Positions 9,354-31,107 of a stretch of 31,107 nt of DNA are shown here, piece by piece. The position numbers were made by a program, and so were the translations under genes. The notes below the pieces were generated by a model. That model was not told the origin of the DNA and ran no database searches. It was given only the letters and a program-made list of their open reading frames with translations. The DNA comes from a virus. Lineage: Duplodnaviria; Heunggongvirae; Uroviricota; Caudoviricetes. The DNA lies in IMG/VR virus record IMGVR_UViG_2602041644_000001; one strand, 5' to 3'. The stretch's first letter is position 1. The number at the start of each line of letters is the position of its first letter.

Positions 9354-9361
9354 TTCATCAA

Positions 9362-9386: not shown

Positions 9387-9410
9387 GCTTATTACAAAGA
9401 GTTTTCTTCA

Positions 9411-9761: not shown

Positions 9762-9782
9762 TAATGATTCTCAACTTCCTGA

Positions 9783-9848
9783 GGGGAGGGGCGGGTCAAA
9801 TCCCTGCGGCCTGACGTCTTCCGGACTGCCCGCCCCATCGTTTTTTTA
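9783..9848. other. GC-rich stem-loop element plus T-run (terminator and/or part of the cos/packaging region)
   Basis: GGGGCGGG (9788-9795) pairs with CCCGCCCC (9829-9836), followed by ATCGTTTTTTTA. Lies between HNH and the small terminase subunit, where HK97-like phages carry cos. Confidence 0.4.
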
Positions 9849-9886
9849 TACCCGCGAAAAATGAAATTTAACCAGGAGTGCCGCAT

Positions 9887-12111: not shown

Positions 12112-12122
12112 CTGAGGTAATT

Positions 12123-12305
12123 ATGATCATGCTGATTCTCGCGCCTCTGGTGGGCGTGCTGGGGGCGCTTTTGCTGGCGTATGGTGCCTGGCTGATTTAT
12201 CCCCCGGCGGGGTTTGTTGTTGCCGGGGCGTTGTGCCTGTTCTGGTCGTGGCTGGTGGCGCGATATCTTGACCGTACACAGTCGTCTGTCGGCGGAGGTA
12301 AATAG
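12123..12305 (+). CDS. Small hydrophobic protein (two predicted TM helices)
   Basis: 60-aa ORF with RBS between terminase and portal. Could be spurious. Confidence 0.35.
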
Positions 12306-14174: not shown

Positions 14175-14188
14175 TCAGGAGAAATACG

Positions 14189-15394
14189 ATGGCGGTTGAT
14201 ATTAAAGATGTCGAACAGGTCGCGCAGGAGCTGCAGCAGAAGTTTGACGACTTCAAAGCAAAGAACGACAAGCGCGTGGATGCGATTGAGCAGGAAAAAG
14301 GCAAACTTGCCGGGCAGGTGGAAACCCTGAACGGGAAACTCAGCGAGCTGGAAAACCTCAAAAGCGATCTTGAAAAAGAGCTGCTTGAGCTGAAACGTCC
14401 GGCAGGTGGTGCGCAAAATAAACTGGCCACCGAGCATAAAGAGGCGTTTGTGGGCTTCCTGCGTAAAGGCCGTGAAGACGGTCTGCGCGATCTGGAGCGT
14501 AAGGCATTGCAGGTGGGCACCGATGAAGACGGTGGCTACGCCGTGCCGGAAGAACTGGATCGCAACATTCTTAACCTGCTGAAAGATGAAGTGGTGATGC
14601 GTCAGGAAGCCACGGTGATCACCGTTGGTGGTTCCGACTACAAAAAACTGGTGAATCTGGGCGGCACGGCTTCCGGATGGGTTGGCGAGACTGACGCGCG
14701 CTCCCAGACTGCCACCTCAAAACTGGGGCTGATTGAACCTTTCATGGGGGAAATCTACGGTAACCCGCAGGCCACCCAGAAAATGCTGGATGATGCCTTT
14801 TTCAACGTGGAGGCCTGGATCAACAGCGAGCTGGCAACCGAATTTGCCGAACAGGAAGAAATTGCCTTTACCACCGGCGATGGTACCAAGAAGCCGAAAG
14901 GGTTCCTGGCGTATGAATCCACGGATGAAACCGATAAGGTCCGGGCGTTCGGCAAACTTCAGCATATTGTATCCGGCGACGCGACTGCGGTGACCGCAGA
15001 CGCCATTATCAAACTGATTTACACGCTGCGAAAGGCACACCGCACTGGCGCGAAGTTCATGATGAACAACAACAGCCTGTTTGCCATCCGTCTGCTGAAA
15101 GACACCGAGGGTAACTATCTGTGGCGTCCGGGGCTGGAACTGGGGCAGCCGTCCTCTCTGGCGGGTTACGGTATCGCTGAAAACGAACAGATGCCGGATA
15201 TCGCCGCTGATGCGAAAGCCATTGCATTTGGTAACTTCAAACGGGGTTACACCATCGTTGACCGTATCGGCACCCGCATTCTGCGTGACCCGTACACCAA
15301 TAAACCGTTTGTCGGTTTTTATACCACCAAACGCACCGGCGGCATGCTGGTCGATTCGCAGGCCATCAAACTGCTGAAGATTGCAGTGGCGTAA
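14189..15394 (+). CDS. Major capsid protein (HK97 fold) with N-terminal coiled-coil delta domain
   Basis: 401 aa with a coiled-coil N-terminal ~100 aa followed by a capsid domain. Strong RBS AGGAGA. Confidence 0.9.
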   Translation: MAVDIKDVEQVAQELQQKFDDFKAKNDKRVDAIEQEKGKLAGQVETLNGKLSELENLKSDLEKELLELKRPAGGAQNKLATEHKEAFVGFLRKGREDGLRDLERKALQVGTDEDGGYAVPEELDRNILNLLKDEVVMRQEATVITVGGSDYKKLVNLGGTASGWVGETDARSQTATSKLGLIEPFMGEIYGNPQATQKMLDDAFFNVEAWINSELATEFAEQEEIAFTTGDGTKKPKGFLAYESTDETDKVRAFGKLQHIVSGDATAVTADAIIKLIYTLRKAHRTGAKFMMNNNSLFAIRLLKDTEGNYLWRPGLELGQPSSLAGYGIAENEQMPDIAADAKAIAFGNFKRGYTIVDRIGTRILRDPYTNKPFVGFYTTKRTGGMLVDSQAIKLLKIAVA

Positions 15395-15401
15395 TCACTC
15401 A

Positions 15402-15430
15402 GGGGCGCGGAACCGCGCCCCTGTTCTGAT
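15402..15430 (+). terminator. Terminator-like hairpin after the capsid gene
   Basis: GGGGCGCGG-AACC-GCGCCCC stem with a weak T-tract. Confidence 0.4.
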
Positions 15431-15442
15431 GGGTGAAGAATC

Positions 15443-15643
15443 ATGATCCTGAAACAAGATCTGAAATGGTCACCGGACGGTATGCGTGTTGAGGTCATTC
15501 GGGCCGGTGAGTATGACGACGGGGCGCTTCCTGCCCGGGTGCAGGAGGTTGCACTTCAGGCCGGGTTAGCAGAGCGCGGAACCAGTGCAAAAAGCAGTAA
15601 AGCGACAAAAGAGAAAAAAGCCACGACCAGTAAAGAGGGCTGA
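15443..15643 (+). CDS. Hypothetical small protein (66 aa, lysine-rich C-terminus)
   Basis: ORF with plausible RBS between capsid and connector genes. Confidence 0.4.
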   Translation: MILKQDLKWSPDGMRVEVIRAGEYDDGALPARVQEVALQAGLAERGTSAKSSKATKEKKATTSKEG

Positions 15644-15645
15644 GT

Positions 15646-15969
15646 ATGCTTCTGACAATGGAAGAGATTAAAGCCCAACTCCGGCTGGATGAGGATTTCG
15701 ATGCTGATGACCGCCATCTGCAACTGCTGGCCTATGCGGCACAAAAGCGGACGGAAACGTATCTGAACCGGAAGCTCTATGCACCGGATGAAACCATTCC
15801 GGACAGCGATCCGGACGGGCTGCACCTGCCGGATGATATTCGTCTGGGGATGCTGATGCTTATCAGCCATTTTTACGAAAACCGCTCGTCGGTTACGGAA
15901 GTGGAGAAACTCGACATGCCGCAGAGTTTTGGCTGGCTTGTCGGCCCGTACAGGTACTTTCCGCAATGA
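15646..15969 (+). CDS. Head-tail connector protein (gp6-like)
   Basis: Size, position and N-terminal MEEIKAQLRLDED motif typical of gp6-like connectors. Confidence 0.75.
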   Translation: MLLTMEEIKAQLRLDEDFDADDRHLQLLAYAAQKRTETYLNRKLYAPDETIPDSDPDGLHLPDDIRLGMLMLISHFYENRSSVTEVEKLDMPQSFGWLVGPYRYFPQ

Positions 15970-16376
15970 AAATTCGTCAGGCGCAGACCAGCGCAACCTA
16001 CATTCTGCCGGACCCCGGTGAACTGAATAAACGCGTCCTGATCCGCCTGCGGGTGGATATGCCCGCGGATAACTTTGGCGTGGAGCCTCAATACCCGGTT
16101 ACGTTCCGGACATGGGCGAAGGTTATCCAGACCAGTGCCACCACCTGGCAGGAAACCGCGCAGACCGGGGACGCCATCACCCATTACATCACCATTCGTT
16201 ACCGCCGGGGGATCACCGCTGATTATGAGGTGGTCTGCGGTGACAGTGTGTACCGGGTGAAACGTCAGCGCGATCTGAACGGGGCGCGGCGCTTTCTGCT
16301 GCTGGAGTGTACGGAGCTGGGCGAATGTAGGCAGAGTCACGGAGGCAACAATGACGACTTCCTTTTTGCACGTTGA
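15966..16376 (+). CDS. Head closure / head-tail adaptor protein
   Basis: Position after the connector, ~136 aa, overlapping starts. Confidence 0.6.
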   Translation: MKIRQAQTSATYILPDPGELNKRVLIRLRVDMPADNFGVEPQYPVTFRTWAKVIQTSATTWQETAQTGDAITHYITIRYRRGITADYEVVCGDSVYRVKRQRDLNGARRFLLLECTELGECRQSHGGNNDDFLFAR

Positions 16377-16857
16377 TTTTCAGCAGCCCGCGGAGATGCG
16401 CTTTAACCGCGCCCGTGTCCGGCGGGCGTTTGTCACGATTGGTCAGCGTCATATGCGTGATGCCCGTCGGCTGGTGATGCGCCGTGCGCGGTCGGCACCG
16501 GGTGAAAACCCCGGTTATCAGACCGGACGCCTGGCTCGTTCGATTGGTTACATGGTACCCAGAGCCAGTAAACATCGCCCTGGTTTTATGGCACGTATAG
16601 CCCCTAACCAGCGTAATGGAGAGGGAAACCGCCGTATCACCGGTGATTTTTATCCGGCTTTTTTGTTCTATGGCGTGAGGCGAGGGGCAAAGCGTCGTCG
16701 CAGCCATCATCGTGGTGCATCCGGTGGCAGCGGCTGGCGACTGGCTCCACGTAATAACTTCATGGTGGAAACGCTTGAAAAGAACCGCAGCTGGACACGC
16801 TATTTTCTGGCGCGGGAATTGCGTAAATCACTGAAGCCGGAGCGACGACACAGATGA
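16351..16857 (+). CDS. HK97 gp10-like protein
   Basis: Basic ~168-aa protein in the expected position. Start ATG 16351 with RBS GGAGG. Confidence 0.65.
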   Translation: MTTSFLHVDFQQPAEMRFNRARVRRAFVTIGQRHMRDARRLVMRRARSAPGENPGYQTGRLARSIGYMVPRASKHRPGFMARIAPNQRNGEGNRRITGDFYPAFLFYGVRRGAKRRRSHHRGASGGSGWRLAPRNNFMVETLEKNRSWTRYFLARELRKSLKPERRHR

Positions 16858-17414
16858 AACTGACGCCTGTTATTGCTGCACTGCGTGCCCGCTGTCCGTA
16901 TTTTGAATACCGGGTTGCAGGCGCGGCCCAGTTCAAAAATCTGCCGGAGGTCGGAAAGCTGAAACTCCCTGCGGCATATGTTGTACCGGGTGATGATTCT
17001 CCGGGAGAAAACAAAAGCCAGACCGACTACTGGCAGGAGCTGAAAGAGGGTTTCTCCGTGGTTGTCATACTGAGTAACGGGCGTGATGAGCGCGGTCAGT
17101 TTGCCTCGTATGATGTGGTGGACGATGTCCGGCAGATGCTCTTTAAGGCTCTGCTGGGCTGGAACCCGGAGGCGTGCGGTAACCCGATTACCTATGACGG
17201 CGGCACGCTGCTGGATCTGAATCGTCATGAGCTGATTTATCAGTTCGATTTTTCGGTCATCAGCGAGCTGACTGAAGACGATACCCGCCAGCAGGATGAT
17301 CTGAACAGTCTGGATGAACTGCAAACGCTGGCGATTGATGTTGATTATCTCGATCCCGGTAACGGGCCTGACGGCGATATCGAACATCACACCGAAATAA
17401 CCCTTCCTTCCTGA
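16854..17414 (+). CDS. Tail completion / terminator-like protein
   Basis: Position between the head-completion genes and the sheath gene. Confidence 0.5.
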   Translation: MKLTPVIAALRARCPYFEYRVAGAAQFKNLPEVGKLKLPAAYVVPGDDSPGENKSQTDYWQELKEGFSVVVILSNGRDERGQFASYDVVDDVRQMLFKALLGWNPEACGNPITYDGGTLLDLNRHELIYQFDFSVISELTEDDTRQQDDLNSLDELQTLAIDVDYLDPGNGPDGDIEHHTEITLPS

Positions 17415-17422
17415 GAATCTTC

Positions 17423-17590
17423 ATGTTTGTGAAACCTGTTAAAGGGCGGTCAGTGCCTGACCCTGCCCGCGGTGACCTTTTGCCCACCGAAGGGCGAAAT
17501 GTTGACGAGAACAACTACTGGCTGCGCCGTGAAGCAGCGGGTGATATCCGGCGCGTGAATGAAAAGGTGAATACCGATGACGAGCTTTAA
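17423..17590 (+). CDS. Small DUF2635-like protein (55 aa) upstream of the tail sheath
   Basis: ATG 17423 to TAA 17588-17590 (MFVKPVKGRSVPDPARGDLLPTEGRNVDENNYWLRR...). Absent from the ORF track because it is under 60 aa. Confidence 0.6.
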   Translation: MFVKPVKGRSVPDPARGDLLPTEGRNVDENNYWLRREAAGDIRRVNEKVNTDDEL

Positions 17591-19070
17591 CACCATTCCG
17601 TCAAATACGCTGGTTCCGATTTTTTATGCGGAAATGGATAACTCGGCGGCGAATACTGCACAGGACAGCGGAGCATCGCTGCTGATTGGTCATGCCAATA
17701 ACGGTGCAGAGATTGTTGCCAACAGTCTGGTGCTGATGCCATCGGCAGACTATGCACGCCAGATTTGTGGTGCGGGAAGTCAGCTGGCGCGTATGGTCGA
17801 GGCTTATCGCCAGACCGACCCGTTTGGTGAGCTGTATGTGATTGCCGTTCCGGAAGCCACAGGCGCGGCGGCAACGGTTACGCTGACGGTGACCGGGGAA
17901 GCAACCGAAAGCGGCACGGTGAATGTTTATGTGGGACGTACCCGCGTGCAGGCACCGGTGACCAACGGCGATAACGTTGCGACGATTGCCAGCAGTATCC
18001 AGGATGCCATCAATGCCGTTCCGGCCCTGCCGTTTACGGCCTCATCTTCGGCTGGCGTGGTCACACTGACCGCGCGTCATAAGGGGCTTTGCGGGAATGA
18101 AATTCCTGTCAGCCTCAATTACTACGGCTTTGGTGGGGGCGAAGTGCTGCCAGCGGGCGTACAGATTGCCGTGGCGACGGGTACCGCCGGAACGGGTGCT
18201 CCGGTTCTCACCGGCGCGGTGGCTGCAATGGCGGATGAGCCGTTTGATTATATCGGCCTGCCGTTCAACGACACGGCCTCCGTTAACACGCTGGTGACCG
18301 AGATGAACGATACCAGCGGTCGCTGGAGCTATGCGCGTCAGCTGTATGGTCATGTGTATACGGCAAAGATCGGCACGCTGTCAGAACTGGTGACCGCAGG
18401 TGACCAGTTTAACCAGCAGCACATTACCCTGGCGGGGTACGAAAAAGACACCCAGACGCCTGCCGATGAGCTGGCGGCAAGCCGTACCGCCCGCGCAGCG
18501 GTGTTTATCCGCAACGATCCGGCACGTCCCACGCAGACCGGTGAGCTGGTGGGTATGCTGCCTGCGCCGAAGGGGAAACGGTTCACGATGACCGAACAAC
18601 AGACCCTGCTGTCTCATGGCGTGGCAACGGCGTATGTCGAAAGCGGGGTACTGCGCATTCAGCGTGATGTCACCACGTACAGGAAAAACGCTTACGGGGT
18701 TGCGGATAACAGCTATCTCGACAGCGAGACGCTGTATACCAGTGCGTATGTACTGCGCAAACTGAAATCCGTCATTACCAGTAAGTACGGGCGTCACAAG
18801 CTTGCCAGCGACGGTACCCGCTTTGGTCCCGGTCAGGCGATTGTCACCCCGGCGGTGATCAAAGGGGAACTGCTGGCAACCTACCGTCAGCTTGAGCGTG
18901 CGGGGATCGTGGAAAACTACGAACTGTTTAAGCAGTACCTGGTTGTGGAGCGTGATGCCAGCGATCCGAACCGCCTGAACACGCTGTTCCCGCCTGACTA
19001 TGTTAACCAGTTGCGTGTCTTTGCCGTGGTTAACCAGTTCCGTCTTCAGTATTCAGAGGAGTCTGCATAA
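17577..19070 (+). CDS. Tail sheath protein (Mu gpL-like)
   Basis: 497 aa. N-terminus MTSFNTIPSNTLVPIFYAEMDNS is characteristic of Mu-like sheath proteins. Confidence 0.9.
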   Translation: MTSFNTIPSNTLVPIFYAEMDNSAANTAQDSGASLLIGHANNGAEIVANSLVLMPSADYARQICGAGSQLARMVEAYRQTDPFGELYVIAVPEATGAAATVTLTVTGEATESGTVNVYVGRTRVQAPVTNGDNVATIASSIQDAINAVPALPFTASSSAGVVTLTARHKGLCGNEIPVSLNYYGFGGGEVLPAGVQIAVATGTAGTGAPVLTGAVAAMADEPFDYIGLPFNDTASVNTLVTEMNDTSGRWSYARQLYGHVYTAKIGTLSELVTAGDQFNQQHITLAGYEKDTQTPADELAASRTARAAVFIRNDPARPTQTGELVGMLPAPKGKRFTMTEQQTLLSHGVATAYVESGVLRIQRDVTTYRKNAYGVADNSYLDSETLYTSAYVLRKLKSVITSKYGRHKLASDGTRFGPGQAIVTPAVIKGELLATYRQLERAGIVENYELFKQYLVVERDASDPNRLNTLFPPDYVNQLRVFAVVNQFRLQYSEESA

Positions 19071-19426
19071 TGGCCCGTATCGGGGGAACCTGTTATTTCA
19101 AAATTGACGGTCAGCAGCTATCGCTGACCGGCGGCATTGAGGTGCCCATGAACAGGACGGTCAATGATGACATCATCGGCCTGGACGGTTCAGTGGACCG
19201 CAAGGAAACTCACCGTGCGCCTTATGTCAAAGGGACCTTCAAGGTGCCGAAGAATTTTCCGGTGAGCAAAATCACCTCGTCTGATGAGATGACCATCACT
19301 GCCGAGCTGGCGAACGGTCAGGTCTATGTATTGTCGTCCGCCTGGCTGCACGGCGAAGCGAACCATAATGCCGAAGAAGGCACGGTTGATCTTGAGTTCC
19401 ACGGTGAAGAAGGGGATTACCAGTAA
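19070..19426 (+). CDS. Tail tube protein (Mu gpM-like)
   Basis: 118 aa directly after the sheath gene. Confidence 0.85.
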   Translation: MARIGGTCYFKIDGQQLSLTGGIEVPMNRTVNDDIIGLDGSVDRKETHRAPYVKGTFKVPKNFPVSKITSSDEMTITAELANGQVYVLSSAWLHGEANHNAEEGTVDLEFHGEEGDYQ

Positions 19427-19695
19427 TGAAAGAGCTTGAGTTAAAGAAACCGATTATCGCTCATGGCGAGACACTCTCCGTACTGGAGTTTGATGAACCC
19501 ACCGGGAAGGATGTCCGCGAGCTGGGGTATCCCTACCAGATGAATCAGGATGAGTCCGTCAGACTTCTGGCGCATGTGGTGTCGAAATACATTGTGCGGC
19601 TGGCGAAAGTGCCGCAAAGCTCTGTCGACCAGATGTCTCCGGCAGACCTGAATGCAGCGGCGTGGCTTGTGGCTGGTTTTTTCCTCCAGGCCTGA
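19426..19695 (+). CDS. Tail assembly chaperone, short form
   Basis: 89 aa between the tube and tape-measure genes. Contains the slippery heptamer near its 3' end. Confidence 0.75.
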   Translation: MKELELKKPIIAHGETLSVLEFDEPTGKDVRELGYPYQMNQDESVRLLAHVVSKYIVRLAKVPQSSVDQMSPADLNAAAWLVAGFFLQA

Positions 19696-19844
19696 CGGCT
19701 GAATACCTCACTGATCGCTTCTTTGACTGCGCCAGCTACTGGCGCATTAATCCCTTCGAATTGCTGAATATGCCGATCAGTGAAATTCCCTTGCTGGTCA
19801 GTCAGGCAAACAGGATAGAGCAGGAGAAACGCACACATGGCTGA
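19426..19844 (+). CDS. Tail assembly chaperone, -1 frameshift fusion product
   Basis: Slippery heptamer T_TTT_TTC at 19677-19683 in the zero frame. The -1 frame is open to TGA at 19842-19844, ending at the tape-measure start. Confidence 0.6.
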
Positions 19845-21672
19845 ATTTGAGCTTAAGGCGTTGATCACCGGTGTCGACAGGCTTTCTCCCGCGCTGTCGA
19901 AAATGCAAAAGAAAATCCGGGGATTTAAACGCCAGGCGGAAGAAGCGTCACAGGGTGGGCTGGCGCTTGGTGGCGGACTGGCAGCGGGTCTGACGCTTTC
20001 CCTGAAATCTTATGCCGATCAGGAAAACGCCGCCACCGGGCTGAAAGTCGCCATGATGGATGCGAACGGCGAGGTTGGAAAGAGCTTTCAGGACATCAAT
20101 AAACTGGCTATTGGCCTGGGTAACCAGCTACCCGGTACAACGGCTGATTTCCAGAACATGATGCAGATGCTGGTGCGTCAGGGGATCCCGGCAGAAAACA
20201 TTCTTGGTGGTGTGGGTAAAGCGACAGCTTATCTTGCGGTACAACTGAAAAAAACACCGGAAGCGGCTGCTGAGTTTGCTGCAAAGATGCAGGATGCTAC
20301 CGGAACGGCCTCAGAAGACATGATGGGGCTGTTCGACACAATTCAGAAGGCGTTTTATCTGGGCGTTGACGACACCAACATGTTGTCATTCTTCACTAAA
20401 ACCAGCTCTGTTCTGAAGATGGTGAACAAGGACGGTCTTCAGGCTGCACAGAGTCTTGCCCCCATCAGTGTCATGATGGATCAGATGGGGATGAACGGGG
20501 AGTCGGCAGGTAATGCCCTGCGAAAAGTTATCCAGTCCGGATTAAGCGTTAAGAAAATCAGGGACGTCAATAAAATCATGGCCCGCCAGAAACTCGGGGT
20601 ACAGCTCGATTTTACTGATGGCAAAGGGAGTTTTGGCGGTCTTGATAACATGTTCAGGCAACTGGCAAAGCTGCGAAAACTGACCGACGTTAAGCGAACC
20701 GGTGTACTTAAGGCAATATTTGGTGATGATGCCGAAACCCTTCAGGTGGTCAATGCGCTGATCGATAAAGGAAAGGATGGCTACGATCAGATCCAGCAGA
20801 AGATGAATAAACAGGCCAGCCTGAATAAACGTGTTCAGGCCCAGCTTGGTACGCTGTCCAACCTGTGGGAGGCAATGACGGGGACCGCAACTAACGGCCT
20901 TGCGGCTATTGGCGGCGCATTTTCTGGTGACGCTAAGAACATCACGCAGTGGCTGGGGGAGTTGGGGGAGAAATTCACGAAGTTTGCGGATGAAAATCCC
21001 CGGGTTATTCGCGGCGTCGTCGGGCTTGCTGCCGGTCTTGCGATTCTGAAACTGGGATTGATGGGCGTGGGCGGTGCCATCAGTATTGTCAGCAGGATCA
21101 TGTCGATGACGCCGATTGGCATGATTGCGACGGCGATTGCTCTGGCTGCGGGATTAATTATCACTAACTGGGATGTTGTCGGACCTTATTTCAAGAAGCT
21201 CTGGGAAACTATTGGTCCTTATTTTGAGGCAGGCTGGGAACTTCTGAAGAAGGTTTTTGCCTGGTCGCCGCTGGGGATGGTGATCAATAACTGGGGACCG
21301 GTTGTTAAGTGGTTTCAGGATATGTGGGACAAGCTGAAGCCGATTATTGAATGGTTTACCGACAGTTCCGGTGACACGGTCGATGCCATTAACTCGGCGC
21401 AGTGGGGCGCGGGTGCTTATGATGCTTATGGGACGGGAATACCGCCACGGGGATACACTCCTTATCCGGCGGTGGATCCGGCTCAGGCAAACAACGCCTC
21501 CGGTGCCACAGGCCCGAATCCCTTCATGATCAACAAAGCTTCTGCGCCAAAAGTTGATGGTGAGATCAAGGTCTCTTTTGTGAATTCGCCTCCGGGTATG
21601 CGGGTTATGGAAACGCGATCCAGCGGTTTTGATGTCAGCCATGATGTTGGCTATACGCGCTTTGGCAGGTAA
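19837..21672 (+). CDS. Tail tape measure protein
   Basis: 611 aa, helical N-terminal half and Gly/hydrophobic C-terminal segments, in the canonical position. Confidence 0.9.
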   Translation: MAEFELKALITGVDRLSPALSKMQKKIRGFKRQAEEASQGGLALGGGLAAGLTLSLKSYADQENAATGLKVAMMDANGEVGKSFQDINKLAIGLGNQLPGTTADFQNMMQMLVRQGIPAENILGGVGKATAYLAVQLKKTPEAAAEFAAKMQDATGTASEDMMGLFDTIQKAFYLGVDDTNMLSFFTKTSSVLKMVNKDGLQAAQSLAPISVMMDQMGMNGESAGNALRKVIQSGLSVKKIRDVNKIMARQKLGVQLDFTDGKGSFGGLDNMFRQLAKLRKLTDVKRTGVLKAIFGDDAETLQVVNALIDKGKDGYDQIQQKMNKQASLNKRVQAQLGTLSNLWEAMTGTATNGLAAIGGAFSGDAKNITQWLGELGEKFTKFADENPRVIRGVVGLAAGLAILKLGLMGVGGAISIVSRIMSMTPIGMIATAIALAAGLIITNWDVVGPYFKKLWETIGPYFEAGWELLKKVFAWSPLGMVINNWGPVVKWFQDMWDKLKPIIEWFTDSSGDTVDAINSAQWGAGAYDAYGTGIPPRGYTPYPAVDPAQANNASGATGPNPFMINKASAPKVDGEIKVSFVNSPPGMRVMETRSSGFDVSHDVGYTRFGR

Positions 21673-21732
21673 TGAAAAATTAATCTGTTAATGAGTCCCA
21701 CTCCGGTGGGATTTTTTATGTACGGAGTTTAT

Positions 21733-23061
21733 ATGACGTGGAAAGACAGGCTTCAGGACGCGTCATTTCGCGGTGTGCCGTTTAAGGTTGAAGAAGAAAG
21801 TGCGGGAACCGGTCGCCGTGTGGAAACACACGAATATCCGAACCGCGACAAGCCCTATACCGAAGACCTGGGGAAAATCACTTTTCGCCCGTCCATCACG
21901 GCTTATGTGGTGGGAGATGACTGCTTTGACCAGCGTGATCGCCTGATTGACGCGCTGAATAAACCCGGTCCCGGCACGCTTGTCCATCCGACTTACGGTG
22001 AGCTGAAAGTCTGTGTTGACGGAGAGGTTCGGGTCAGCACATCGAAGAGTGAAGGGCGTATTGTCCGCTTTGACCTGAAGTTTGTCGAAGCGGGAGAACT
22101 CTCTTACCCCACATCAGGTGCGGCGACGGCGCAGACGCTGATGTCATCCTGTTCTGCACTGGATGACTGCATCAGTGACAGTTTCAGTGGTTTCAGTATC
22201 GATGGCGTGGCAGATTTTGTGCAGAACGACGTCGTCGGTAATGCCAGCACAATGCTTGGGTATGTTTCTGATGCGATGAAAGTGGTGGATTCTGCCGTAT
22301 CGGATGCCGCCAGGCTGTTGCAGGGGGATATCTCGGTACTTCTGCCGCCGCCATCGTCAGGCAAAAATTTCGTTGAGCAGGTGCAGAAAATGTGGCGTAC
22401 CGGGAAACGCCTTTATGGTAACGCCAGCGACCTGGTCACCATGATCAAAACGCTTTCCGGTGTCAGCCTCGGCAGCGATCTGCAACCGCGCGGCGTCTGG
22501 AAAACGGACAGTAAAACCACCGCCACGGCGACGCAGCAGCGTAACGTGGTTGCCAGTACCCTTCGTACGACCGCAATCAGCGAAGCGGCGTATGCCGTCA
22601 CACGATTGCCTGCGCCCACAACTTCCGCGGTGATGCAGAATGCCACAGTGGGGCAGTCAACAACACCCGCGCAGAGCACCGGCTGGCCTTCTGTCACGCA
22701 TCCGGCACTGAACAATGCACCGGCGGTGAAAAACACGGTTGACCTGCCAACGTGGGAAGAACTGACCGACATTCGCGACACGCTGAATACGGCAATTGAT
22801 AAGGAGTTGTCCCGTACAACCAGTGATGCGCTGTTTCTGGCACTGCGCCGGGTGAAAGCAGATCTGAATGCGGATATCAACACGCGCCTTGAACAGTCTG
22901 CACGGATCATTCAGCGCACGCCGGATGAGGTCTTACCCGCGCTGGTGCTGGCGGCGACCTGGTTTGATAACGCGGCGCGTGACGCGGACATTATCCGGCG
23001 TAATGCCATTAAACATCCCGGCTTTGTGCCGGTGATCCCTCTGAAGGTGCCAGTGCAATGA
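21733..23061 (+). CDS. DNA circularisation protein (Mu N-like)
   Basis: N-terminus MTWKDRLQDASFRGVPF typical of Mu N-like proteins. ATG 21733 preferred over 21691. Confidence 0.8.
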   Translation: MTWKDRLQDASFRGVPFKVEEESAGTGRRVETHEYPNRDKPYTEDLGKITFRPSITAYVVGDDCFDQRDRLIDALNKPGPGTLVHPTYGELKVCVDGEVRVSTSKSEGRIVRFDLKFVEAGELSYPTSGAATAQTLMSSCSALDDCISDSFSGFSIDGVADFVQNDVVGNASTMLGYVSDAMKVVDSAVSDAARLLQGDISVLLPPPSSGKNFVEQVQKMWRTGKRLYGNASDLVTMIKTLSGVSLGSDLQPRGVWKTDSKTTATATQQRNVVASTLRTTAISEAAYAVTRLPAPTTSAVMQNATVGQSTTPAQSTGWPSVTHPALNNAPAVKNTVDLPTWEELTDIRDTLNTAIDKELSRTTSDALFLALRRVKADLNADINTRLEQSARIIQRTPDEVLPALVLAATWFDNAARDADIIRRNAIKHPGFVPVIPLKVPVQ

Positions 23062-24137
23062 ACGATAACGTCACGCTACGGGTAAATGGCCGGGAGTGGA
23101 ATGGCTGGACATCGGTGCGCATCGGTGCCGGTATTGAACGGCTGGCGCGGGATTTCAGTGTGGAGATCACCCGCCAGTGGCCGGGAGATGAGGGTATCAC
23201 CACGCTTCAGCCGCGCATTAAAAATGGTTCAAAAGTGGAAGTGCTGATTGGTGATGAGCTGGTGATCACCGGCTGGGTGGAGGCGACCCCCGTTCGTTAC
23301 GATGCCCGTTCGGTCAGCACCGGTATTGCCGGACGTAGTCTGACTGCTGACCTGATTGACTGTGCAGCCGAACCGACACAGTTTAACGGACGATCGCTGG
23401 TACAGATTGCGCAGGCGCTTGCTGCGCCTTTCGGCATTGAGGTGGTGAACAACGGTGCGCCGTCGGGTGTTATTCCTGATGTCCAGCCTGATCACGGTGA
23501 AACGGTGATTGAGGTAATCAACAAAATACTCGGTCAGCAGCAGGCACTGGCTTACGACGACCCGCACGGCAGGCTGGTGATTGGCGGTATTGGCTCAACG
23601 CGGGCACATACTGCGCTGGTACTCGGGGAAAACATCCTTTCCTGCGATACGGAGAAGAGTATCCGGGAGCGGTTTTCTGTTTACCAGGTGGCGGGGCAGC
23701 GTGCCGGAAACGACGATGATTTCGGTGAGGCCACCACCACCGCGCTGCGGGCCCGCACAGAGGACGCATTTATTGCCCGTTACCGTCCGATGTATATCAG
23801 GCAGACAGGGCAGGCTACGGGGGCAGGCTGTATTGCCCGTGCGGACTTTGAAGCCAAACAACGGGCGGCGCGGACGGATGAAACCACCTATGTGGTGCAG
23901 GGCTGGCGACAGGGTAACGGTACGCTGTGGCAGCCCAACCAGCGGGTGATTGTCTTTGATCCGGTCTGTGGTTTCGACAATACCGAACTGCTTGTTTCGG
24001 AAGTCACGTTTACTCAGGACCAGAACGGCACCCTGACGGAAATCCGTGTCGGCCCACCTGATGCTTATCTGCCTGAACCCGAAGCCCCCGGCGCGCGGAA
24101 AAAGAAAAAAGCCAGAGTACAGGAGGACCCGTTCTGA
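23058..24137 (+). CDS. Mu gpP-like tail / baseplate hub protein
   Basis: 359 aa in the Mu-like order N-P-45-46-47-48. Confidence 0.8.
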   Translation: MNDNVTLRVNGREWNGWTSVRIGAGIERLARDFSVEITRQWPGDEGITTLQPRIKNGSKVEVLIGDELVITGWVEATPVRYDARSVSTGIAGRSLTADLIDCAAEPTQFNGRSLVQIAQALAAPFGIEVVNNGAPSGVIPDVQPDHGETVIEVINKILGQQQALAYDDPHGRLVIGGIGSTRAHTALVLGENILSCDTEKSIRERFSVYQVAGQRAGNDDDFGEATTTALRARTEDAFIARYRPMYIRQTGQATGAGCIARADFEAKQRAARTDETTYVVQGWRQGNGTLWQPNQRVIVFDPVCGFDNTELLVSEVTFTQDQNGTLTEIRVGPPDAYLPEPEAPGARKKKKARVQEDPF

Positions 24138-24685
24138 TGAGGACGATTGAAGCCATGCAGCGACAACTCCTCGGCCTGATTGGGCGGGCCGTGGTGAAAA
24201 GCATCAGTGCCGCCACGAAATGTCAGACCGTGGATGTGTCTCTGATTGCCGGTGAACCCAAAGCCGGGGTTGAACATCTTGAACCCTACGGTTTTACCGC
24301 AAGGGCAAACAGCGGTGCGGAAGCGGTGGTGTTGTTTCCGGATGGCGACCGTTCTCATGCGGTGGTTGTTACGGTGTCGGACCGGCGCTACCGCCTGAAA
24401 GGGCTGCAGACGGGTGAGGTGGCTGTCTATGACGATCAGGGGCAGTCCGTGACGCTGACCCGGGAGGGGATCGTGGTGGACGGTGCAGGTAAAACGATCA
24501 CGTTTCGCAATTCACCTAAAGCACGTTTTGAAATGGACCTGGAAGTGACCGGACAGGTGAAAGACCTGTGCGACTCCAGCGGCACCACCATGTCAGCGAT
24601 GCGGCTTGCCTATAACGGGCATCGTCACAGAGAGAACGGTCAGGGCAGTAACACCGACAAACCTGATAAAGCAATGGAGGCATGA
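24137..24685 (+). CDS. Baseplate spike / assembly protein V (Mu gp45-like)
   Basis: 182 aa gpV-like protein with coupled start. Confidence 0.8.
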   Translation: MRTIEAMQRQLLGLIGRAVVKSISAATKCQTVDVSLIAGEPKAGVEHLEPYGFTARANSGAEAVVLFPDGDRSHAVVVTVSDRRYRLKGLQTGEVAVYDDQGQSVTLTREGIVVDGAGKTITFRNSPKARFEMDLEVTGQVKDLCDSSGTTMSAMRLAYNGHRHRENGQGSNTDKPDKAMEA

Positions 24686-25110
24686 TGGAACTGTGGCTGA
24701 TGGTGAACGGTAAACGCACCTGCGCCAGCACACCGCTGGATCCGCTGACCCGCGCCGTGGTGATTTCCCTGTTTACCTGGCGGCGGGCGGAGCCTGATGA
24801 CAACGCCGACGTCCCGATGGGATGGTGGGGGGATACCTGGCCTGCGGTACAGAATGACCGTTACGGCTCCCGGCTGTGGCTGCTTCAGCGCAGCAAACTG
24901 ACCAATCAGCTGGTGCAGACGGTAAGGGGGTATATCCGCGAATGCCTGCAATGGATGATTGATGACGGTGTGGTGTCCCGTATTGATCTGGATATCCGCC
25001 GCACCGGGATTAATGAACTGGGTAACAGTATCACTCTCTGGCGTCGTGACGGACCGGTAATGATTTCTTTTGATGATCTGTGGAGTGCGATAACGCATGG
25101 CGGACAGTGA
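24682..25110 (+). CDS. GP46-family baseplate protein (Mu gp46-like)
   Basis: 142 aa in conserved position. Confidence 0.75.
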   Translation: MMELWLMVNGKRTCASTPLDPLTRAVVISLFTWRRAEPDDNADVPMGWWGDTWPAVQNDRYGSRLWLLQRSKLTNQLVQTVRGYIRECLQWMIDDGVVSRIDLDIRRTGINELGNSITLWRRDGPVMISFDDLWSAITHGGQ

Positions 25111-26155
25111 ATTTCAGCGCCCGACGCTGGCAGAAAATATCAGTATGCTCCGTAACGATTTATTCGCCAGGCTGGACGTCAGCGACACGCTCCGGCGCAT
25201 GGATGAAGACGTGCGGGCAAAGGTGTATGCGGCGGCGCTGCATACGGTTTACGGGTACATCGATTATCTGGCAATGAACATGCTGCCTGACCTGTGCGAT
25301 GAGTCCTGGCTGGCGCGACATGCTGCGATGAAACGGTGTCCGCGCAAGGGGGCCACGGCTGCCAGCGGGTATATGCGCTGGGAAGGTGTCAGCGATGGCC
25401 TGAAAGTGACCGCCGGGAGCGTGATTCAGCGCGATGACCTGGTTCAGTACACGGCAACTGCCGATGCAACCAGCTCCGGTGGTGTCCTGCGCGTGCCGAT
25501 CGCCTGCTCAAGTGCAGGCGCGGTCGGTAACGCTGACGACGGTACGGCATTAATCCTGGTCACGCCGGTGAATGGTCTGCCGTCTTCCGGTGTGGCTGAC
25601 ACTCTGACAGGCGGATTTGATACTGAAGATCTGGAAACGTGGCGCGCCCGCGTCATTGAGCGGTATTACTGGACGCCGCAGGGCGGGGCTGACGGGGACT
25701 ATGTCGTCTGGGCTAAAGAAGTGCCCGGCATTACCCGCGCATGGACATACCGTCACTGGATGGGAACGGGAACTGTCGGTGTGATGATTGCCGGCAGTGA
25801 CCTGATTAATCCCATTCCGGAAGAATCAACGGAAACGGCGGCAAGACAACACATCGAGCCACTGGCCCCGGTGGCAGGCTCTGATTTGTATGTGTTCAGG
25901 CCGGTGGCGCATACGGTGGATTTTCATATCCGCGTGACGCCGGACACACCGGAAATACGGGCTGCCATCACCGCGGAGTTGCGTTCGTTCCTGCTGCGTG
26001 ATGGTTATCCGCAGGGAGAACTGAAGGTGTCACGTATCAGTGAAGCGATTTCCGGTGCGAACGGGGAATACAGCCATCAGTTGCTTGCTCCGGCGGACAA
26101 TATCTCCATTGCGAAAAATGAACTGGCGGTTCTGGGGACGATTTCATGGACGTGA
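25097..26155 (+). CDS. Baseplate J-like protein (Mu gp47-like)
   Basis: 352 aa in conserved position. Confidence 0.85.
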
Positions 26156-26730
26156 CAAACGATGATTACATCCGCCTGTTATCGGCACTGTTGCCGCCCG
26201 GTCCGGCGTGGTCAGCCAGCGATCCGGCGATTGCCGGTGCGGCGCCTTCATTAACCCGTGTTCATCAGCGTGCGGATGCCCTGATGCGGGAGCTGGATCC
26301 GCGCACCACCACCGAACTGATAAATCGCTGGGAGCGTCTGTGCGGTCTGCCGGATGAATGTATTCCCACAGGGACACAGACCCTTCGCCAGCGTCAGCAA
26401 CGGCTGGATGCGAAGGTTAACCTGGCGGGCGGCATCAACGAGGATTTTTACCTTGCCCAGCTTGCTGCCCTGGGCAGACCAGACGCCAGCATCACGCGAT
26501 ACGACAAAAGCACGTTCACCTGCTCATCGGCCTGTACTGACGCGGTGAATGCGCCGGAATGGCGGTATTACTGGCAGGTCAACATGGCAGCTGCCACCAA
26601 CACCACCTGGATGACATGTGGCGATCCCTGTGATTCCGCACTGCGTATCTGGGGCGACACCGTTGTCGAGTGTGTGCTTAACAAACTCTGCCCGTCGCAT
26701 ACCTACGTAATTTTTAAATATCCGGAGTAA
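26146..26730 (+). CDS. Tail protein, Mu gp48-like / YmfQ-like (DUF2313)
   Basis: 194 aa resembling e14 YmfQ-type proteins, directly upstream of the tail fibre gene. Confidence 0.8.
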
Positions 26731-26733
26731 TCC

Positions 26734-27489
26734 ATGCATCGTATAGACACGAAAACCGCGCAGAAGGATAAGTTCGGCGCGGGTAAGAACGGTTTTACCC
26801 GTGGTAACCCCCAGACCGGCACACCTGCCACCGATCTGGATGATGACTACTTTGACATGTTGCAGGAGGAGCTTTGCGGCGTGGTGGAGGCATCCGGTGC
26901 CAGCCTGGAGAAGGGGCGGCACGACCAGCTGCTTACCGCGCTTAGTGCGCTACTGTTAAGCCGCAAAAATCCGTTTGGCGATATCAAATCGGACGGCACG
27001 GTGAAAACGGCTCTCGAAAACCTTGGTTTGGGAGAAGGCTCTGCATTACCTGTTGGTGTGCCTGTTCCGTGGCCCTCAGCCACTCCGCCAACAGGCTGGC
27101 TAAAATGCAACGGAGCAGCTTTTTCTGCTGAAGAATACCCGGAACTGGCAAAGGCTTACCCGACAAATAAATTGCCTGATTTACGCGGTGAATTTATTCG
27201 TGGCTGGGATGACGGACGTGGAGTGGATGCCGGGCGACAATTATTATCTTCACAGGGGGATGCAATAAGAAATATTGAGGGATTCGCAGATGGCGGGATC
27301 GGCATGTCTTTTGATGCAATCAGAGGGGCTTTTTACGATGCAGGAACACGATCAGCGAGAATGCCGAATAACACAACTGATATAGGCAAAACCGATGACC
27401 TTGGATTCGACGCCTCTCGTGTCGTGCCAACAGCTAATGAAAACCGTCCACGTAACATCGCCTTTAATTATATTGTGAGGGCTGCATAA
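26734..27489 (+). CDS. Tail fibre protein: constant N-terminal part fused to the currently expressed variable C-terminal cassette
   Basis: The constant part ends at the recombination site near codon ~97 (…LENLGLGE). The downstream part lies inside the invertible segment. Confidence 0.8.
27011..27037. repeat. Left inversion crossover site (gix/pix-like)
   Basis: CTCTCGAAAACCTTGGTTTGGGAGAAG. The 15-nt TTGGTTTGGGAGAAG is the exact reverse complement of 28841-28855 and the site resembles hix/gix half-sites. Confidence 0.65.
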
Positions 27490-28082
27490 TGAAACCTGTT
27501 TTTGATGAAAATGGGCTGGCTACAGTGCCGGGTGATATGCGTTGTTATTATTATGATGCAGTAACGTCTGAATATACGGGCTGGTCTGATGAATATATTA
27601 ATACTGGCGTAAGTATGCCCGCCTGTTCCACTGGTATTGACCCGGGCGAATACATTCCGGGGCAAGTGGCAGTATTCACGGGTAAGGGATGGAGCCATGA
27701 AGAAGACCATCGCAATGAGACTGTTTACTCAACAGAAAATGGCGCAGCTGTTACAGTGGATTATATCGGTGCCATCAAAGACGGTTATGTCACGCTTTCA
27801 CCGTTAACGCCATACGATAAATGGGATGGTGAGAAATGGGTGACAGATACTGAGGCACAGCATAGTGCCGCACTAGACGCGGCAGAAGCACAGCGCCAGT
27901 CGCTGATTGATGCTGCAATGGCTTCCATCAGTCTGATTCAACTGAAATTACAGGCCGGGCGGAAGCTGACGCAGGCAGAAACAACCCGACTTAACGCCGT
28001 GCTGGATTATATTGACGCGGTGACGGTAACAGATACCAGCACTGCGCCGGATGTCATCTGGCCTGAACTGCCGGAGGCGTAG
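27489..28082 (+). CDS. Tail fibre assembly protein (Tfa) for the expressed cassette
   Basis: 197 aa with a typical Tfa C-terminus (…DTSTAPDVIWPELPEA). Start coupled to the fibre gene stop. Confidence 0.8.
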   Translation: MKPVFDENGLATVPGDMRCYYYDAVTSEYTGWSDEYINTGVSMPACSTGIDPGEYIPGQVAVFTGKGWSHEEDHRNETVYSTENGAAVTVDYIGAIKDGYVTLSPLTPYDKWDGEKWVTDTEAQHSAALDAAEAQRQSLIDAAMASISLIQLKLQAGRKLTQAETTRLNAVLDYIDAVTVTDTSTAPDVIWPELPEA

Positions 28083-28494
28083 GCCATTCAATATCTGGCG
28101 CACCGGAAGTATCGACCAGTTCCAGTGTGTCCAGATAATCCAGCCACAAATTATATTGCGCCAGTTCCTCACCTTTCAGGCGACCAATCGCCGCTTTACC
28201 AGGCCATTGCTTACTGTTTATGTATTCGTTGACCTGATTAATCAATTGCTGCTTTTCCAGTTCGGCTGCGGCAATTTGTTCCTCATGAGTTGGCGGTGGA
28301 ATATCAATCCATGCAGGCATTCCGTCGATGACACCTCTGTATTTTCCTTCTGGTGCTTCCTTCATAAATTCGGCGGCAACAGTGTCGTCAATTTCGATTC
28401 CATCATCGGGCCATTCGCCGGATTCCTGATAAGCGATTTTAAGCTCCACAGGGAAAAACGCATTTTTATCGGCACTGAAAATATATTTCTGCAT
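28054..28494 (-). CDS. Alternative tail fibre assembly protein (Tfa') for the silent cassette
   Basis: 146 aa on the minus strand with the matching C-terminus (…DTSGAPDIEWPTPPAVQAR). Convergent with and overlapping the plus-strand tfa by 29 bp. Confidence 0.8.
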   Translation of the reverse strand: MQKYIFSADKNAFFPVELKIAYQESGEWPDDGIEIDDTVAAEFMKEAPEGKYRGVIDGMPAWIDIPPPTHEEQIAAAELEKQQLINQVNEYINSKQWPGKAAIGRLKGEELAQYNLWLDYLDTLELVDTSGAPDIEWPTPPAVQAR

Positions 28495-28496
28495 TT

Positions 28497-28855
28497 CTAC
28501 CGTCCTATCGAAATATAACTGAATCTGTATTGCTGTGAGATATCACTGGTTGCCACACGCCACGCTGAATTACTGATATGTTCAAAATTTACAGACAAAA
28601 CCTGCAGGGCAGGATTCGACGGGTCTGACTGAACGGCATCAGACATAACACTGACTGAAACCATCGGCTGATTAGGGAATGGTATAGGGAAGTGTCCACT
28701 GATAAAGCGGGTCGTGTTTCCTGAAAAAGTGCCAAACTGAACAATATATCCACCTGGTAGCCTGAACCATCCCGAACCAGAAGCGAATGCTCCCATATCC
28801 GGTATCTGATTATCTCCTGTGCCCACATCCCTTTTCGCCGCTTCTCCCAAACCAA
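28497..28855 (-). CDS. Silent alternative tail-fibre C-terminal cassette (promoterless until inversion)
   Basis: Minus-strand frame reads GLGEAAKRD… from the crossover site, the same GLGE junction as the plus-strand fibre. Confidence 0.7.
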
Positions 28856-28867
28856 CATTTATGAAAA
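28841..28867. repeat. Right inversion crossover site (gix/pix-like)
   Basis: CTTCTCCCAAACCAACATTTATGAAAA. The first 15 nt are the inverted repeat of 27023-27037. Located just upstream of pin. Confidence 0.65.
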
Positions 28868-28921
28868 TGCAGAAATAACGAGCAAATGGCATCATTCCTG
28901 CTTTTGCTAGGGAGATCTACC

Positions 28922-29476
28922 ATGCTTATTGGCTATGTACGTGTGTCAACAAATGACCAGAACACAGATCTACAACGTAATGCGCTGAACTGTGCAGGAT
29001 GCGAGCTGATTTTTGAAGACAAGATAAGCGGTACAAAGTCCGAAAGGCCGGGACTGAAAAAACTGCTCAGGACATTATCGGCAGGTGACACTCTGGTTGT
29101 CTGGAAGCTGGATCGGCTGGGGCGCAGTATGCGGCATCTGGTCATTCTGGTTGAGGAGTTGCGCGAACGTGGCGTTAATTTTCGCAGCCTGACGGATGCT
29201 ATTGATACCAGCACACCGATGGGGCGTTTTTTCTTTCATGTGATGGGTGCCCTGGCTGAAATGGAACGAGAACTGATTGTTGAACGAACAAAAGCTGGAC
29301 TGGAAGCTGCTCGCGCACAGGGACGAATTGGGGGACGTCGTCCCAAACTTACACTAGAACAATGGGCGCAGGCCGGGCGATTAATTGCATCAGGCATTCC
29401 TCGCCAGAAGGTGGCGATTATCTATGATGTTGGTGTGTCAACTTTGTATAAGAGGTTTCCTGCAGGGGATAAATAA
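28922..29476 (+). CDS. pin: Serine DNA invertase (Pin/Gin/Hin family)
   Basis: MLIGYVRVSTNDQ catalytic N-terminus and C-terminal HTH. 184 aa like e14 PinE. ATG 28922 after GGGAGA. Confidence 0.95.
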   Translation: MLIGYVRVSTNDQNTDLQRNALNCAGCELIFEDKISGTKSERPGLKKLLRTLSAGDTLVVWKLDRLGRSMRHLVILVEELRERGVNFRSLTDAIDTSTPMGRFFFHVMGALAEMERELIVERTKAGLEAARAQGRIGGRRPKLTLEQWAQAGRLIASGIPRQKVAIIYDVGVSTLYKRFPAGDK

Positions 29477-29577
29477 AGTTAAAGACACTTTGTGTACAAA
29501 ATAAAACAACAGCAACTTGTTGCAATTTTATCAATAAAAGTAGTATTGTCGTAAAAAATTGATTAAAGATTAATGCT

Positions 29578-30411
29578 ATGCATGTTTTTGATAATAATGG
29601 AATTGAACTAAAAGCTGAGTGTTCGATAGGTGAAGAGGATGGCGTTTATGGTCTAATCCTTGAGTCGTGGGGGCCGGGTGACAGAAACAAAGATTACAAT
29701 ATCGCTCTTGATTATATCATTGAACGGTTGGTTGATTCTGGTGTATCCCAAATCGTAGTATATCTGGCGTCATCATCAGTCAGAAAACATATGCATTCTT
29801 TGGATGAAAGAAAAATCCATCCTGGTGAATATTTTACTTTGATTGGTAATAGCCCCCGCGATATACGCTTGAAGATGTGTGGTTATCAGGCTTATTTTAG
29901 TCGTACGGGGAGAAAGGAAATTCCTTCCGGCAATAGAACGAAACGAATATTGATAAATGTTCCAGGTATTTATAGTGACAGTTTTTGGGCGTCTATAATA
30001 CGTGGAGATCTATCAGAGCTTTCACAGCCTACAGATGATGAATCGCTTCTGAATATGAGGGTTAGTAAATTAATTAAGAAAACGTTGAGTCAACCCGAGG
30101 GCTCCAGAAAACCAGTTGAGGTAGAAAGACTACAAAAAGTTTATCTCCGAGACCCGATGGTAAAAGCTTGGATTTTACAGCAAAGTAAAGGTATATGTGA
30201 AAACTGTGGTAAAAATGCTCCGTTTTATTTAAATGATGGAAGCCCATACTTGGAAGTGCATCATGTAATTCCCCTGTCTTCAGGTGGTGCTGATACAACA
30301 GATAACTGTGTTGCCCTTTGTCCGAATTGCCATAGAGAATTGCACTATAGTAAAAATGCAAAAGAACTAATCGAGATGCTTTACGTTAATATAAACCGAT
30401 TACAGAAATAA
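29578..30411 (+). CDS. mcrA: McrA-type modified-cytosine restriction endonuclease (HNH)
   Basis: 277 aa. C-terminal HNH motif (HHVIPLSSGGADTTDNCVALCPNCHRELH) with CxxC pairs. Sequence and position after pin match e14 McrA as recalled. AT-rich gene. Confidence 0.85.
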   Translation: MHVFDNNGIELKAECSIGEEDGVYGLILESWGPGDRNKDYNIALDYIIERLVDSGVSQIVVYLASSSVRKHMHSLDERKIHPGEYFTLIGNSPRDIRLKMCGYQAYFSRTGRKEIPSGNRTKRILINVPGIYSDSFWASIIRGDLSELSQPTDDESLLNMRVSKLIKKTLSQPEGSRKPVEVERLQKVYLRDPMVKAWILQQSKGICENCGKNAPFYLNDGSPYLEVHHVIPLSSGGADTTDNCVALCPNCHRELHYSKNAKELIEMLYVNINRLQK

Positions 30412-30644
30412 AATTGTTTATTAAAGTCACATTTAAGACGTAATACCTTACAGGGTAAAAATTTTCTCTGATCTTAACTTCTGCAAATGTTAACTGCTTT
30501 TTTTATGCTAAAAATGGTTATCAAAACTCAAAAACACATGTTGATAATCAATGAGTTATGGAAATGCTAAGAGCTAATGAGTTATATGCAAATTAGTAAA
30601 ATTATGTTGCTATGTCAAATAGTTACGATTTAATCATCTAACTA

Positions 30645-30809
30645 ATGCTGCGCCATATGGGCTGGACTGAAGCCGCAGACCTGATTGTTAAAGGTATGGA
30701 AGGCGCAATCAACGCCAAGACTGTAACCTATGACTTCGAGCGTCTGATGGATGGCGCTAAACTGCTGAAATGTTCAGAGTTTGGTGATGCGATCATCAAG
30801 AACATGTAA
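30645..30809 (+). pseudogene. icd: Displaced 3' fragment of isocitrate dehydrogenase gene (icdC-like), marking attR
   Basis: Encodes [54 protein letters not shown], the Icd C-terminus, with no upstream icd sequence. Confidence 0.9.
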
Positions 30810-30831
30810 TCTCTACATGTGTTAAATATTG

Positions 30832-30862
30832 AAACGGGCGTGTTATACGCCCGTTGTTTTTG
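30832..30862 (+). terminator. Intrinsic terminator downstream of the icd fragment
   Basis: Hairpin ACGGGCG-TGTTATA-CGCCCGT followed by TGTTTTTGTG. Confidence 0.7.
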
Positions 30863-30865
30863 TGC

Positions 30866-31107
30866 ACAGAAAACCCCCAGCTAGGCTGGGGGTTCCGGAA
30901 AGCTTTCAGCTTTAAGCCAGTTATTAAAACCCCTTTTGATTTGTTAAAACACCTTGCGGTCTGGCAACTGCAAGTGTCAAACAAGAAATCAAAAGGGGGT
31001 CCCAATGGGGAACGAAAAGAGCTTAGCGCACACCCGATGGAACTGTAAATATCACATAGTTTTTGCGCCAAAATACCGAAGACAGGTGTTCTACAGAGAG
31101 AAGCGTA
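30866..31107 (+). mobile_element. IS200-family insertion sequence, left end (partial, continues beyond window)
   Basis: Perfect hairpin CCCCCAGC-TA-GCTGGGGG (30874-30892), a second structured leader, and the tnpA start. Exact left boundary not determined. Confidence 0.7.
31005..31107 (+). CDS. tnpA: IS200 transposase TnpA (Y1 HUH), N-terminal 34 codons only
   Basis: MGNEKSLAHTRWNCKYHIVFAPKYRRQVFYREKR matches the conserved IS200 TnpA N-terminus. Open to the window end. Confidence 0.85.
   Translation, partial: MGNEKSLAHTRWNCKYHIVFAPKYRRQVFYREKR

Follow-up and report, generated by a model that had tools for sequence, protein, structure and literature searches.

The gene at positions 29578 to 30411 (plus strand) of the DNA analysed here, a stretch of 31,107 nucleotides that we call the window, is the already known, textbook mcrA in its textbook position, present as an intact minority allele. 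We consider it very probable that this is a functional allele encoding EcoKMcrA, a Type IV enzyme that acts on modified DNA only, and that it is the final gene of a temperate, e14-type myovirus prophage that has icd as its integration site.

The gene and its identity

The open reading frame (ORF), recorded with an ATG start in the six-frame list, comprises 277 codons and a stop and is assigned to the Type IV modification-dependent restriction endonuclease McrA. Its GC content is 38.5%. The window as a whole has 52.1%, the structural module (9500-27000) 55.7%, and the DNA between the end of pin and the att junction (29477-30640) 35.0%; an open frame of 834 nt in DNA as AT-rich as this is already unlikely to occur by chance. 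Residues 1-277 aligned with the crystal structure of EcoKMcrA, PDB 6GHC (E=1.3e-188), and, judged on sequence, a match of such strength cannot be explained as chance. The PADLOC mREase_IV model PDLC03656 was also covered from end to end (1-277/277, E=1.1e-200), Pfam PF01844 (HNH) was matched at residues 207-256 (E=2.1e-15), and the RefSeq annotation of identical DNA is mcrA, with protein WP_021519698.1. NCBIfam holds no McrA-specific HMM, and the HNH domain gave only sub-threshold IscB and PT-restriction matches there. The low GC content, the PF01844 domain and the end-to-end match to EcoKMcrA corroborate the earlier note on this DNA, which had described an AT-rich HNH gene matching McrA.

An alignment to K-12 McrA, which that note had proposed as a check, gave 273 of 277 residues identical to the MG1655 protein (98.6%), the substitutions being V59I, E144D, V190L and N222S. 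At the DNA level 9 of the 834 bases differ from the MG1655 gene, with five codons changed synonymously and four by conservative non-synonymous substitutions, and the codon comparison between the two genes revealed no frameshift or stop. A fifth mismatch, found against 6GHC only, concerns position 196, where the window has K and the crystal sequence E; K196E is a crystallisation variant of EcoKMcrA (PMC6182155). The six-frame list also holds an antisense ORF of 95 aa (30074-30361, minus strand) that lies wholly within mcrA; it found no support and was taken as spurious.

Conservation of functional residues

The protein divides into an NEco domain (aa 1-143, positions 29578-30006, plus strand), which aligned with residues 1-143 of the NEco construct 6R64 (E=3.3e-94), and an HNH (beta-beta-alpha-Me) nuclease core (aa 207-256, positions 30196-30345, plus strand), delimited by the Pfam match. 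The functional residues to be checked in each were drawn from two studies of EcoKMcrA (PMC6182155 and PMC7145662). In the NEco domain, the proximal methyl pocket is made of S30, N119 and K122 and the distal pocket of W31, the backbone of W31 and G34 touches the 5mC:G pair, R109, G118 and T121 add contacts, and the DNA-contact segments comprise residues 29-37, 64-71 and 107-123 (PMC7145662). In the nuclease domain, H229 acts as nucleophile activator (general base), H228, H252 and H256 are metal ligands, N243 is structural, and two CxxC motifs hold structural Zn (PMC6182155).

All of these are kept in the window. The pocket and DNA-contact residues S30, W31, G32, P33, G34, R109, G118, N119, T121 and K122 are present, as are H228, H229, N243, H252 and H256 of the HNH site and both zinc motifs (C207/C210 and C248/C251), so that the substitutions in the HNH catalytic residues which the earlier note had named as a test of its reading were not found. 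V59I, the sole change in the NEco span, falls outside segments 29-37, 64-71 and 107-123, all of which are identical to K-12.

We placed the four substitutions in an alignment of 27 full-length McrA homologues (39-99% identical) from Enterobacterales, Aeromonas, Vibrio, Pseudomonas and Prosthecobacter. The HNH catalytic residues, the CxxC zinc residues and S30, N119 and K122 are invariant across the 27, and 26 of them have W31. V59I, E144D, V190L and N222S all fall at variable columns, and the residues of the window recur among the homologues (I59 in 11/27, D144 in 6/27, S222 in 13/27, and L190 in 2/27 at a column that is highly variable). N222S lies within the HNH domain, six residues ahead of H228; at this position S is the majority residue among the homologues and the N of K-12 is the outlier. 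Nothing in the residues suggests a loss or a change of McrA function, as far as sequence can tell.

Surroundings of mcrA

Upstream of mcrA lies pinE (28922-29476, plus strand; ORF 28886-29476), annotated as such by RefSeq and encoding a serine DNA invertase with a Pfam Resolvase domain (E=1e-51) and an HTH_7 domain. Further upstream is a segment of about 1.8 kb (27018-28860) that has an inverted repeat of 20 nt at either end (27018-27037 and 28841-28860, 90% complementary); inside it the annotation places tail-fibre tip and assembly genes opposed to each other, on both strands. The two repeats are presumed to be the Pin crossover sites of an invertible host-range segment, and mcrA is located just outside this last functional module of the phage.

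Downstream of the mcrA stop comes an AT-rich stretch of 233 bp (30412-30644), the phage arm of attR, as defined by aligning attR with attL and by the beginning of the icd homology. It is followed by the icdC pseudogene (30645-30809, plus strand, 165 bp), which is the displaced original 3' end of icd: it matches positions 301-348 of the 348 of the Pfam Iso_dh profile, shares 92% identity with the corresponding end of the complete icd copy found at attL of NZ_CP145634.1, and is labelled by RefSeq as a partial isocitrate dehydrogenase pseudogene. The alignment of both icd 3' ends puts the junction of phage and host DNA between 30644 and 30645, 233 bp past mcrA, and since attR is placed there, mcrA closes the prophage as its last gene and anchors the right end at that junction. 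With pinE on one side and attR on the other, the position that the earlier note had assigned to the gene, between pin and the attachment site, holds.

Within the phage arm we detected two exact direct repeats of AATGAGTTAT (30550-30559 and 30576-30585), 26 bp apart. The motif is absent from the rest of the window and has a 9/10 match in the attL arm (position 8409 of locus L003), and the repeats could possibly serve as arm-type sites of the integrase. Beyond icdC, in host DNA, the terminator scan recovered the native intrinsic terminator of icd (30833-30855, plus strand), with a 10-pair stem and a T run, which is also kept in the attR of K-12 and in attL. An IS200-family element starts right after it (30857-31107), whose tnpA ORF starts near 31005 and is cut off by the end of the window. 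The Rfam scan of the whole window returned a single match, the IS200 5' RNA STnc490 at 30872-30995 (146 bits), and no RNA element tied to mcrA. In NZ_CP145634.1 two tandem IS200C copies come after icdC and iraM/ymgK are absent there; in K-12, iraM/ymgK come after icdC.

As to expression, the AT-rich spacer of 101 bp between pinE and mcrA (29477-29577, plus strand) contains neither a consensus sigma-70 promoter nor a terminator on its plus strand, and the Shine-Dalgarno sequence of mcrA is weak. A promoter and terminator scan of 29300-31000 gave 5 promoter-like sites where shuffled sequences led one to expect 5.2, and for this reason the scan says nothing on an mcrA promoter. Transcription of mcrA may come from read-through of pinE or from a weak or non-consensus promoter.

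The carrier prophage and its distribution

The window is 99.99% identical to positions 5150673-5181779 of NZ_CP145634.1 (3 mismatches in 31107), from strain S1-JOR-02-A. About 17-22 kb before the window begins, that genome contains an intact icd, a DUF262 gene, intE and xisE, and the presence there of intact icd, intE and xisE identifies the element as a prophage of about 39 kb inserted in icd. Its lysis, terminase, portal, capsid, sheath, tube, tape-measure and baseplate genes are complete, and mcrA marks it as a full-length relative of the defective e14 of K-12.

Across 5426 complete E. coli genomes, mcrA was found in 340, of which 5 are 100% identical to the window over 29480-30640; at the DNA level 8 of the 340 are at least 99% identical to the window allele and most are about 98%. 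The block pinE-mcrA-icdC is present at a coverage of at least 80% in 329 of the 5426 genomes. The 25 kb body of the phage (window 1-25000), at the same minimum coverage, occurs in 570 genomes, compared with 340 for mcrA. In a collection of phage genomes the only full-length match to McrA was in ON470584.1 ('Escherichia phage vB_EcoM-689R6'), whose McrA is 100% identical. We did not accept this entry as evidence that the gene travels in virions or that the phage is active, the record being partial and rearranged and containing host genes (icd, rluE, nudJ, mnmA and hflD).

Alternative readings of the gene

The gene could be a silent or decayed relic, its frame intact yet unexpressed or its product catalytically dead. 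Such a reading would draw on the lack of a detected consensus promoter upstream of mcrA and on the four amino acid changes, including one in the HNH domain, that separate the protein from the enzyme characterised in K-12. However, the frame is complete and every functional residue is conserved, the four changes affect variable columns, bringing in residues common in homologues, and, in contrast to the defective e14, the prophage that carries the gene seems to have a full set of genes. Moreover, the pin-mcrA-icdC region of K-12 is 96% identical and K-12 is phenotypically McrA+ (PMC4444293), all of which makes a relic very unlikely. A further possibility is that the window allele has shifted in specificity and reads another sequence context or another modification than K-12 McrA, for which its standing as a minority allele (the 8 of 340 mentioned above) could be invoked; yet the three DNA-contact segments are the same as in K-12 and V59I, the only NEco change, lies outside them, and we regard such a shift as extremely improbable.

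One could also think of a housekeeping HNH nuclease of the phage, of packaging or homing type, with no part in defence, given that several PHROG HNH families match the C-terminus of McrA and that phage packaging modules often contain HNH domains. Against this, the phage has a separate HNH gene, unrelated to mcrA, that encodes a small endonuclease of 116 aa (9411-9761; Pfam HNH E=5e-15) and immediately precedes the one for the small terminase subunit, the usual site of a packaging-associated HNH. The ORF at 29578-30411, on the other hand, carries the full modification-reading NEco domain, matches EcoKMcrA from end to end, and is located outside all functional modules of the phage, at the att end. 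A housekeeping role is thus next to inconceivable.

Predicted mechanism and restriction activity

EcoKMcrA dimerises via its HNH domains, forming one DNA channel (PMC6182155), and at 98.6% identity to the crystallised dimer the McrA of the window would likewise form a homodimer through these domains around a single channel. The NEco domains of EcoKMcrA bind separately and without base flipping, with a preference for fully modified Y-5mC-G-R and acceptance of 5hmC (PMC7145662). In the window protein, each NEco domain would therefore be expected to bind a fully modified Y-5mC-G-R (or 5hmC) site independently, from the major groove and without flipping the base, one methyl lying in the pocket of S30, N119 and K122 and the other packing against W31. 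The HNH site would then cut, with H229 as general base, with H228, H252 and H256 holding a metal that is probably Mn2+, and with the CxxC motifs holding Zn2+.

Cells with wild-type EcoKMcrA restrict plasmid modified by M.HpaII as well as T4gt, but neither glucosylated T4 nor lambda; the mutants H228A and H229A lose restriction, and the nuclease activity of EcoKMcrA in vitro is weak (PMC6182155). We infer restriction activity from the 98.6% identity to this characterised enzyme and presume that the gene is expressed in the lysogen, and by analogy the phenotype is expected to be linked to the prophage in this lysogen as well. The lysogen would restrict incoming plasmids and phages with CpG-type methylation (for example M.HpaII-modified) and non-glucosylated 5hmC phage such as T4gt, and from mcrA one would expect the strain to be ill suited as a recipient of CpG-methylated DNA.

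The gene stands alone, its neighbours being pinE and attR/icdC, with no cognate protective methyltransferase beside it. Two methyltransferase genes were found in the window, an orphan N6-adenine methyltransferase of Dam type in the early region (1500-2186; PF05869, E=1e-45; full-length match to the PADLOC MTase_II model PDLC03263) and a truncated N6/N4 gene (6876-7190), neither of C5 type and both far from mcrA. McrA and methylation by Dcm (C5mCWGG) are compatible (PMC3874153). Host DNA methylated by Dcm (CCWGG) and prophage DNA methylated at adenine would both be non-substrates, and because the methyltransferases of the window are of adenine or N6/N4 type and Dcm is compatible, no self-conflict is apparent for the host of the prophage.

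Possible exchange of defence genes at the prophage ends

The earlier note had considered mcrA to be terminal defence cargo of the prophage, and related elements lend weight to this view, since sister prophages with a 98.2% identical body hold a GmrSD-type enzyme in its place. These sisters, in NZ_CP147125.1 and NZ_CP010140.1, reach that identity over window positions 1-25000, are integrated elsewhere, and in both the homology to the window ends at 29045, inside pin. After the truncated pin comes a gene for a GmrSD-type protein of 629 aa with GmrSD_N and GmrSD_C domains (NZ_CP010140.1, locus L016, 4775-6664, minus strand; NZ_CP147125.1, locus L015, 4353-6242), which covers the PADLOC Type IV model PDLC03655 over its whole length (1-629/629). 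In other prophages that occupy icd, sitABCD is found next to icdC in place of mcrA. This replacement, and the larger number of genomes with the phage body (570) than with mcrA (340), likewise speak for cargo.

The opposite edge of the prophage, outside the window, also carries a candidate gene of this kind. Between icd/attL and intE lies the gene for a GmrSD_N (DUF262) protein of 350 aa (locus L003, 9107-10159, equal to NZ_CP145634.1 5143106-5144158, minus strand; Pfam E=6.7e-20), with PADLOC matches to NsnA (8.5e-32) and PD-T4-2_A (9.5e-14). Two short ORFs of 103 and 83 aa come next, where a phage record annotates a single gene of 216 aa.

We tentatively hypothesise, with the odds somewhat against so specific a scheme, that the slot after pin exchanges single-gene nucleases of modified DNA and that the prophage is bracketed by two such defences, being perhaps a full-length and possibly inducible form of e14. 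The presence of McrA, a GmrSD-type enzyme or sitABCD at equivalent terminal positions in related or co-located prophages provides a modest but concrete case of defence-gene turnover at prophage ends, and this comparative view, of a lineage whose end swaps modification-dependent nucleases, appears to be the only mildly new angle that the locus offers.

Homologues of McrA in other bacteria are also on mobile elements, and the edge varies. The homologue of Serratia marcescens (68%; loci L011/L012, 7001-7834) belongs to an icd-integrated prophage, where its neighbours on the integrase side are a MazG-like gene and a further HNH gene. The same prophage has a gene for a C5 DNA methyltransferase (PF00145), so that one may ask whether this enzyme is compatible with the McrA-like protein of the element. 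The Citrobacter homologue (75%) adjoins a DEAD/YjiV-type helicase of 1946 aa, and that of C. braakii (50%) is found between replication genes and rusA, in a nin-like region of a lambdoid prophage.

The earlier note had further argued that mcrA makes two cargo islands of the same element more credible as accessory loci; a reading of these AT-rich islands as defence loci finds no direct support in their contents. One island (5500-7200, 37-40% GC) lies between an antiterminator gene (4735-5487) and a holin gene, and the other (8500-9400, 35% GC) between the Rz/Rz1 lysis genes and the HNH and terminase genes. The first contains an ORF of 180 aa (5699-6241) that matched only phrog_11949, together with the N6/N4 methyltransferase remnant referred to above, a C-terminal fragment (6876-7190; PF01555; positions 221-314 of the 333 of PADLOC MTase_II). 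The second contains an ORF of 168 aa (8847-9353) that matched only phrog_5789. Neither ORF 5699-6241 nor ORF 8847-9353 had a match in Pfam or PADLOC, so that no match to a defence family emerged, and both of the PHROGs that they do match are of function not known. The low GC content and the positions of the two islands are typical of phage accessory genes.

Comparison with known systems

The mcrA gene of e14 counts among the founding examples of restriction that depends on modification and of defence carried by prophages, and both the structure and the mechanism of its product have been solved. The window gene is alike to EcoKMcrA (mcrA/rglA of the K-12 e14; structures 6GHC, 6R64, 6T21 and 6T22) in its length of 277 aa, in its NEco and HNH architecture and in its recognition, catalytic and zinc residues. 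The two settings also agree, with pinE upstream, icdC/attR downstream and icd as the site of integration. They differ in that the e14 of K-12 is a deletion remnant of about 15 kb with truncated terminase, portal and baseplate-J genes, whereas the carrier of the window gene spans about 39 kb. In e14 the truncated HTH and terminase genes are adjacent or fused, and so are the truncated portal and baseplate-J genes, and only positions 25476-27215, 27801-28158 and 28841-30860 of the window have counterparts in the K-12 stretch from tail genes to attR (locus L002), at 93.6-96.5% identity. The other edge differs as well, consisting of lit, ymfE and ymfD in the e14 of K-12 and of the GmrSD_N protein in the prophage studied here.

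The GmrSD-type enzymes (DUF262 + DUF1524), such as WP_032193087.1 of the sister prophages, resemble McrA in being single-gene nucleases of modified DNA that occupy the terminal position after pin. Unlike McrA, they are built of GmrSD_N and GmrSD_C in place of NEco and HNH, with unrelated folds; the enzyme of the sisters measures 629 aa and is encoded on the opposite strand, and the arrival of its gene truncated pin. ScoMcrA and the SRA-HNH enzymes (TagI, ScoA3IV) share with McrA a C-terminal HNH domain, an N-terminal sensor of modification and dimerisation by the nuclease domain (PMC6182155). In our comparison, 5ZMM matched residues 183-275 of the window McrA (E=1.3e-10), a similarity confined to the HNH domain, and the sensors of the two groups also work differently, since base flipping is a feature of the SRA and SBD sensors of ScoMcrA and the SRA-HNH enzymes and is absent from NEco (PMC7145662; PMC3874153).
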